DNA of 7,620 bases, taken from a virus. Its lineage: Duplodnaviria; Heunggongvirae; Uroviricota; Caudoviricetes. The translations under genes and the position numbers were made by a program. Under the pieces are notes generated by a model. That model saw only the letters and a list, made by a program, of their open reading frames with translations, made no database searches and had not been told where the DNA came from. The DNA is taken from IMG/VR virus record IMGVR_UViG_2667528065_000006, one strand, 5' to 3'. The number at the start of each line of letters is the position of its first letter. The stretch's first letter is position 1. Shown here one piece after another: positions 2,407 through 2,939 of this stretch.

Positions 2407-2571
2407 TTAGTTGATTGTTATCTCTGACTTCATACTCCTGCTCCTGTCAGGGTTTTGGCGTAATTCTTCAGTATTCGGTAATCGGTCAAAACAGAACCAG
2501 GAAAACGGACAGAAGCGCAGGCGCACCCAGCGGCGGCGAAGACGCTCTGCCATATAAGACTCAAACATCAT
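2407..2571 (-). CDS. ylcG: ylcG-like small ORF, probably carrying a +1 frameshift
   Basis: ATGATG start overlaps the rusA stop and opens MMFESYMAERLRRRW.... After about codon 20 the YlcG-like C-terminus (RFPGSVLTDYRILKNYAKTLTGAGV, stop at 2430-2432) is in the +1 frame. Start to that stop spans 142 nt, against 141 expected for the 46-aa protein I recall. Confidence 0.4.
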   Translation of the reverse strand: MMFESYMAERLRRRWVRLRFCPFSWFCFDRLPNTEELRQNPDRSRSMKSEITIN

Positions 2572-2939
2572 TCATCTCCCAGTTCGGTGATGGTCAGCTC
2601 CAGCTTCCCACCTTTGGTAACCGGCTATCTTCACAACACGGTAATCAACGACCTGAATATCATCCAGCCAGAAACCTGCTTTGGTGAGTGCGTCAAAAGC
2701 GGCTTTTTGCAGATTATCCAGGTCACGGCGACGGCGATCCGGCATGTGGCACTCAATACGGATTTTAGAGGGACCACTGGCATAGCCAAGCCGATATCCA
2801 GCATTGCGTTTTTAATGATTCGGGCGACGTTATCGCAGTATGCCTGCCCCTCTGCGCTGACGTGCGTGCGCCCACGATTATGGCGGTAATAGCGATTATT
2901 GCTCGGAGGCCAAGGTAATGTGATGCTGTAGGTATTCAC
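2568..2939 (-). pseudogene. rusA: rusA (Holliday-junction resolvase) disrupted by two frameshifting insertions
   Basis: The first 54 codons match RusA ([34 protein letters not shown]...GLAMPV). An 8-bp insertion (plus-strand agagggac, 2767-2774) shifts frame; the middle ([45 protein letters not shown]) is only readable in a second frame; a 1-bp insertion near 2626 restores the original frame for the C-terminus PVTKGG.LELTITE.... The locus is 372 nt against 363 expected. The intact-frame ORF stops at 2631 after a nonsense tail. Confidence 0.8.

Follow-up and report, generated by a model that had tools for sequence, protein, structure and literature searches.

The rusA gene is broken in the deposited sequence of the prophage region analysed here, in which two insertions, one of eight bases and one of a single base, separate the coding sequence into three reading segments. 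Judged from the sequence, the locus as deposited would be unable to make an active RusA and is a dead rusA. We infer that the insertions are probably consensus or assembly errors of a 2013 draft and not mutations carried by the living strain, in which rusA would in that case be intact, the usual 120-aa gene of a lambdoid prophage of the DLP12 type. The case is either an assembly artefact or a well-known gene that has become an ordinary pseudogene, and it is neither novel nor surprising.

Source contig and gene organisation

The window, that is, the whole stretch of DNA that was analysed, is 7,620 bp long. An exact-protein look-up identified it as the entire contig AOQI01000203.1 (contig 203) of the draft assembly GCA_000397365.1, and it is 100% identical to that record. 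The assembly is a fragmented draft from 2013 with at least 203 contigs. The ORF listing and Pfam scans assigned the window to an E. coli lambdoid prophage of the DLP12 type, of which it covers the late-regulatory (nin) region. They located the essD holin gene (18-233, minus strand), an ompC/nmpC-like porin gene (657-1772, plus strand), the quuD antiterminator gene (1961-2359, minus strand), ybcO (2936-3226, minus strand), ninE (3219-3389, minus strand), ybcN (3389-3844, minus strand), an alpha/beta hydrolase gene (about 4343-5335, plus strand) and the ybcK serine recombinase gene (5685-7211, minus strand). Between quuD and ybcO lie ylcG (2430-2571, minus strand), which alignments and ORFs show to be frameshifted, and rusA (2568-2939, minus strand), whose disruption was established from alignments, translation and the annotation of relatives. 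An Rfam search of the window gave no structured RNA matches.

The same gene order is found in the RefSeq annotation of KC-Dl-1 (L001), the best-matching complete genome, and of K-12 MG1655 (L014). The K-12 rusA gene (b0550, ybcP; DLP12; PDB 1Q8R, 2H8C, 2H8E; PF05866) is part of the order ybcK ... ybcN-ninE-ybcO-rusA-ylcG-quuD-porin-essD, as in the window. The content differs between ybcK and ybcN, where the window and its relatives carry the alpha/beta hydrolase gene, whereas K-12 carries ybcL and ybcM. In the relatives, the corresponding region sits within a fuller lambdoid prophage.

The contig opens (position 1) where the holin gene essD ends and terminates (position 7620) approximately 400 bp past ybcK; in the relatives, the neighbouring genes beyond these points are a lysozyme gene at one end and ylcJ/emrE at the other. 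If the flanks at the contig ends are common to several lambdoid prophages, the genome may hold related prophages and perhaps further copies of rusA. A separate observation concerns the alpha/beta hydrolase gene, in which the annotated ATG start is an ATA (4292-4294), and 330 aa are called rather than 347 aa. The site carries no private change in the window, and the nearest loci L009 and L010 likewise have 330-aa calls, so that the ATA looks like a natural polymorphism separate from the cluster of private changes described below.

Structure of the disrupted rusA gene

The rusA sequence was aligned to three references, namely KC-Dl-1, K-12 MG1655 and the nearest locus L009, and the changes were identical in all three alignments. 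The gene measures 372 nt in the window, which corresponds to the 363-nt gene plus 9 inserted bases. At its GTG start the gene overlaps the stop codon of ybcO, and its native TGA overlaps the start codon of ylcG; K-12 rusA shares both overlaps. The first lesion consists of eight extra bases at 2767-2774 (2768-2775 is an equivalent placement), reading AGAGGGAC on the plus strand and GTCCCTCT on the gene strand. They follow gene nucleotide 165 and therefore fall exactly on the boundary between codons 55 and 56. The second lesion, seen in the alignments at 2622-2626, is one extra base at 2626, inside codon 102, together with a substitution at 2622 that is synonymous after repair (CCC to CCG, P103).

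Apart from the 9 inserted bases and the one synonymous change, the rusA DNA is identical to the intact rusA of L001 and L009. Removal of the 9 bases yields a RusA protein identical to that of L001 and the nearest relatives, and the gene therefore bears no further sign of decay. The repaired protein has 120 aa and differs from K-12 RusA at only 5 residues. Unlike K-12 rusA, the window copy has 8 bp added after codon 55 and 1 bp added in codon 102, so that no full-length RusA is encoded; an alignment with the K-12 gene had been proposed in an earlier note on this DNA, and it displayed both insertions.

Translation was used to follow the three segments. The first (2775-2939, minus strand) comprises codons 1-55 (MNTYS...LAMPV) in the native frame and covers positions 1-44 of the Pfam RusA profile. 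The second (2627-2766, minus strand) comprises native codons 56-102, now shifted relative to the start-codon frame, and encodes R69, D70, D72, K76 and D90/D91. The third (2568-2625, minus strand) holds codons 103-120 (P103-E120) and the stop, and it stands in the start-codon frame again, behind two stops. The ORF that begins at the start codon (2631-2939, minus strand) ends at a premature TGA (2631-2633, minus strand; ORFs and translation) and has 102 aa, of which 55 are native and 47 are nonsense residues. Past this nonsense tail the order is TGA, AGA and TAG (2625-2627), and the TAG is itself made by the base inserted at 2626. The last 18 native codons regain the frame only beyond the TGA and the TAG.

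The earlier note had described two insertions, three reading segments and a net gain of nine bases that restores the frame of the last 18 codons, all of which the alignments and the translation confirmed. Its 102-aa ORF also stood, while the nonsense tail it gave as 48 aa has 47 residues. The word "compensating", which it applied to the two frameshifts, is a misnomer, since two in-frame stops precede the restored frame and leave the second insertion without any corrective effect.

Consequence for the RusA protein

RusA of K-12 is a 120-aa dimeric resolvase (PDB 1Q8R, 2H8C). Its catalysis depends critically on D70, D72, K76 and D90/D91, and its DNA binding on R69 (PMC1636454). None of these residues is present in the product of the start-codon frame. 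As the catalytic and metal-binding residues fall outside the reading frame, the gene as written is non-functional. This bears out the claim of the earlier note that the truncated product lacks the conserved middle of the protein, as D70, D72, K76 and D90/D91 lie within the lost residues 56-102.

A further ORF of 57 aa (2572-2745, minus strand; ORFs and Pfam) starts internally at native M63. It is the one gene on the contig to be called as "RusA"; its product is missing residues 1-62, and the final 18 residues come from a shifted frame. The Pfam RusA family (PF05866) matches both pieces, at profile positions 1-44 in the 102-aa ORF and at positions 77-113 of 124 in the 57-aa ORF (E=1.2e-10). With 18.1 bits, the 102-aa ORF remains below the PF05866 cut-off of 22.8, and the 57-aa ORF reaches 42.4 bits; a full-domain RusA ORF above the Pfam gathering score was not found in the window. 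The DNA identity to intact rusA, taken with the Pfam match to both pieces, indicates homology and not chance similarity. Nucleotide identity and the position in the nin region, flanked by ybcO and ylcG, further identify the gene as the orthologue of DLP12 rusA.

Occurrence of the lesions in other sequences

Each of the 10 related loci, and K-12 as well, encodes a 120-aa RusA, so that the window ORF is disrupted relative to intact orthologues, as would be expected of a genuine pseudogene. Independent sequence support for the lesion, which a genuine pseudogene would also be expected to have, was found neither in complete E. coli genomes nor in GTDB representatives, JGI metagenomes or the protein/gene-position index. 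Specifically, 3,505 complete E. coli genomes contain the region, and neither rusA insertion was present in any of them; the best identity was 95.3% over 211 bp. A 34-mer across the 8-bp insertion had no match in the GTDB species-representative genomes or the JGI metagenomes. The 102-aa product had no record in the protein/gene-position index (153 billion gene positions, including Logan assemblies), and the 57-aa product was on record among the 153 billion gene positions only from AOQI01000203.1 itself, as a single-member cluster.

Several sources of the inserted bases were considered and rejected. A natural allele was rejected on the grounds that approximately 3,500 complete E. coli genomes with the region, the GTDB representatives and the JGI metagenomes have neither the insertions nor the ylcG cluster of changes. 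No second or inverted copy of the 8-bp insertion was found within the contig, even with 2 mismatches allowed in a 12-mer. A template switch or quasi-palindrome origin was rejected in view of the lack of any direct or inverted template in the contig. Inspection of the alignments showed that the eight bases do not duplicate their flanks, which eliminated a target-site duplication or transposon footprint. A paralogue-derived or chimeric consensus was likewise rejected, as the private bases differ from the divergent alleles of L007, L008 and L012.

Frameshifted rusA genes are known from other sequences. When the 102-aa ORF was used in a protein search, approximately 30 clusters of products from other frameshifted rusA alleles (97-99 aa) were retrieved, most of them singletons. 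Many of these alleles shift at an A5 run at codons 75-76 (...NLQK/PLLTHS...), and a few (P0023, P0038, P0040) are found on 9-18 contigs or within a complete genome. The 99-aa alleles (P0019, P0023, P0038, P0040) use the same alternative frame and the same terminal TGA as the window allele. They differ from it in that they arise from a single-base shift at the A5 run or at codons 62-63, whereas the window has an untemplated 8-bp insertion at 55/56 that is found nowhere else; the window allele, unlike them, also has a second insertion. As a side observation, the 99-aa frameshifted rusA recurs in many independent assemblies (P0019-P0047) with the A5 run in CTGCAAAAAGCC (codons 74-77, window ~2703-2714), and this run could be a mutational or sequencing-error hot spot.

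Clustering of private changes in rusA and ylcG

The neighbouring ylcG is frameshifted by a 1-bp insertion at 2507 and has substitutions at 2510 and 2512. These changes are private to the contig, the best match among 3,466 genomes being 98.1%. Between window positions 1726 and 7620, the only differences from L009 and L011 are 3 substitutions and 3 insertions. A multiple alignment with the 10 related loci gave the private changes as 2507, 2510, 2512, 2622, 2626 and 2767-2774, with no others in 5,575 bp, and 2775-7620 (4.8 kb) is identical to the relatives. All six private changes are located inside 2506-2774, a span of 269 bp, and each substitution is at most 5 nt from a 1-bp insertion. The chance that six independent events would fall within 269 of 5,575 bp is ~1.5e-6, or 7e-3 if they are counted as 3 events.

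The composition of the changes is also unlike natural variation. Across the same region, the 10 related loci presented 81 substitution columns against one 1-bp indel, while the window has 3 against 3 (Fisher p=7e-4). The single natural indel among these loci, that of L010 (CP022609), is a 1-bp change at the ybcO/rusA junction (L010 ~12272-12315, corresponding to window ~2950), and it lengthens the ybcO call to 109 aa.

Other anomalies on the contig

Further unusual features were observed towards the left end of the contig. A perfect 25-bp tandem duplication (TTGGAGTCAGTGAATAACTCAGGTA, 2.2 copies) occupies 311-364, between essD and the porin gene; the unit occurs once in K-12 and in every relative. 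Another tandem duplication of 25 bp (474-521) runs up against a 55-bp stretch of scrambled sequence (500-554), which lies upstream of the porin gene and takes the place of 247 bp present in the relatives and in K-12. The equal 25-bp length of the two duplications suggests an algorithmic (overlap or k-mer) origin. A further cluster of a substitution and a 1-bp insertion is located at about 572-577. Near the porin C-terminus, a 33-bp tandem duplication (1693-1760) with one mismatch between the copies adds 11 residues, giving a porin of 371 aa compared with 360 aa, and the 371-aa porin is on record only from AOQI01000203.1. The duplications and the replaced stretch were found in no complete E. 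coli genome searched, and K-12 has single copies. The changes are thus private to one low-contiguity assembly and occur together with anomalies at odds with natural variation, as would be expected of an artefact.

The porin gene itself shows approximately six scattered substitutions at 700-1260 relative to the nearest prophage copies, some of which match alleles of other lineages. An identical porin was found in no complete genome (best 99.3%). These substitutions might reflect either natural mosaicism or a chimeric consensus.

Origin of the rusA insertions

Errors of consensus or joining in draft assemblies, such as uncollapsed overlaps that produce short tandem duplications and miscalled low-coverage patches, offer one of the closest known comparisons. 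The window resembles them in its private, base-adding changes, in its two 25-bp duplications, in a duplication lying beside a scrambled and shortened stretch, in substitutions next to 1-bp insertions and in being a 7.6-kb draft contig. It differs from them in that most of the contig is error-free. Private and mostly base-adding changes, the recurrent signature of a substitution with an insertion, the duplications of equal length and the lack of ordinary SNPs nevertheless favour an error of the draft as the source of both insertions. Some features argue against it: the 4.8 kb at 2775-7620 are flawless, which indicates that the assembly is not uniformly poor, and the 1-bp insertions are not the simple homopolymer extensions of 454 or Ion Torrent data. 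Moreover, cryptic-prophage genes do decay, and other frameshifted rusA alleles are public, some of them on many contigs.

These last points lead to the reading that the strain carries a genuine and very recent pseudogene, with the 8-bp and 1-bp insertions real and rusA, a normally silent gene exposed to little selection, lost together with the translationally coupled ylcG. We hold this to be possible but less likely. The lesions are, after all, present in the deposited sequence, and the approximately 30 clusters of independently frameshifted products (97-99 aa) demonstrate that frameshifts in rusA do occur. The perfect SNP-level agreement with relatives over 4.8 kb also counts in its favour. 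As rusA is quiescent in K-12 unless activated by an IS element (PMC1636454), its loss should be nearly neutral. On the other side, the allele has no independent sighting, and it combines at least six structural changes with no isolated SNPs that would mark elapsed time. The changes are clustered and carry the complex signature of substitution plus insertion, and the same contig also holds the equal-length 25-bp duplications and a scrambled junction. E. coli is not known to have a Ku/LigD end-joining pathway, nor is a common mechanism known by which it would acquire an untemplated 8-bp insertion.

The tight grouping of six private changes in 269 bp, with zero in the other 5.3 kb, would also be accounted for by a real local burst of mutagenesis in the nin region, through either error-prone repair of a break or selection against rusA/ylcG expression. 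The threefold occurrence of the substitution plus 1-bp insertion signature (~572-577, 2507-2512 and 2622-2626) is in line with such a process. We nevertheless regard as very improbable both such a burst and its suggested effect, the joint inactivation of the coupled rusA and ylcG, perhaps favoured by selection against a newly expressed nuclease. At a distance of 2 kb, unrelated intergenic and porin sequences show the signature and the duplications as well, which a single local event would not explain; the changes have neither an independent sighting nor a template, and sequence error is the simpler account of everything.

That the gene works after all, either as a natural variant with a different middle or by recoding (programmed frameshifting) that joins the segments, has next to no probability and is effectively refuted: the net gain of nine bases does return the last 18 codons to the original frame, but TGA and TAG close the shifted frame ahead of the second insertion, the catalytic residues are lost, no slippery or otherwise shift-prone site could be recognised on inspection of the junctions, and the only matches to the out-of-frame tail are other frameshift alleles of rusA, mostly singletons, whereas clusters of the intact 120-aa protein each hold hundreds to thousands of sequences. 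A genuinely alternative RusA middle, named in the earlier note as an observation that would overturn its reading, was not found, the shifted frame being seen only in broken alleles with differing entry points.

With draft error as the preferred reading, the interpretation given in the earlier note is partly supported. Its verdict of "likely non-functional" holds for the sequence as written and is doubtful for the strain, given that the insertions are private to one anomalous draft contig.

Implications

The biological weight of the finding is small, and its chief use is as a caution. Private insertions and duplications in the contig, and probably in the whole assembly, give rise to false pseudogenes (rusA, ylcG) and to an 11-residue porin repeat. 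For this reason, gene-content or pseudogene calls from GCA_000397365.1 should not be trusted without reads.

In K-12, rusA is silent until an upstream insertion of IS2 or IS10 activates it, after which it suppresses ruv mutations (PMC1636454); the earlier note was correct in stating that activated RusA suppresses ruv mutants. If the lesions are real, one strain would have lost a silent and dispensable prophage resolvase, which is a latent back-up and not an active function. As many as three copies of the region can be present in an E. coli genome, and rus-type suppression of ruv mutations, which the earlier note took to be unavailable here, would be gone from such a strain only if it has no other copy of rusA.
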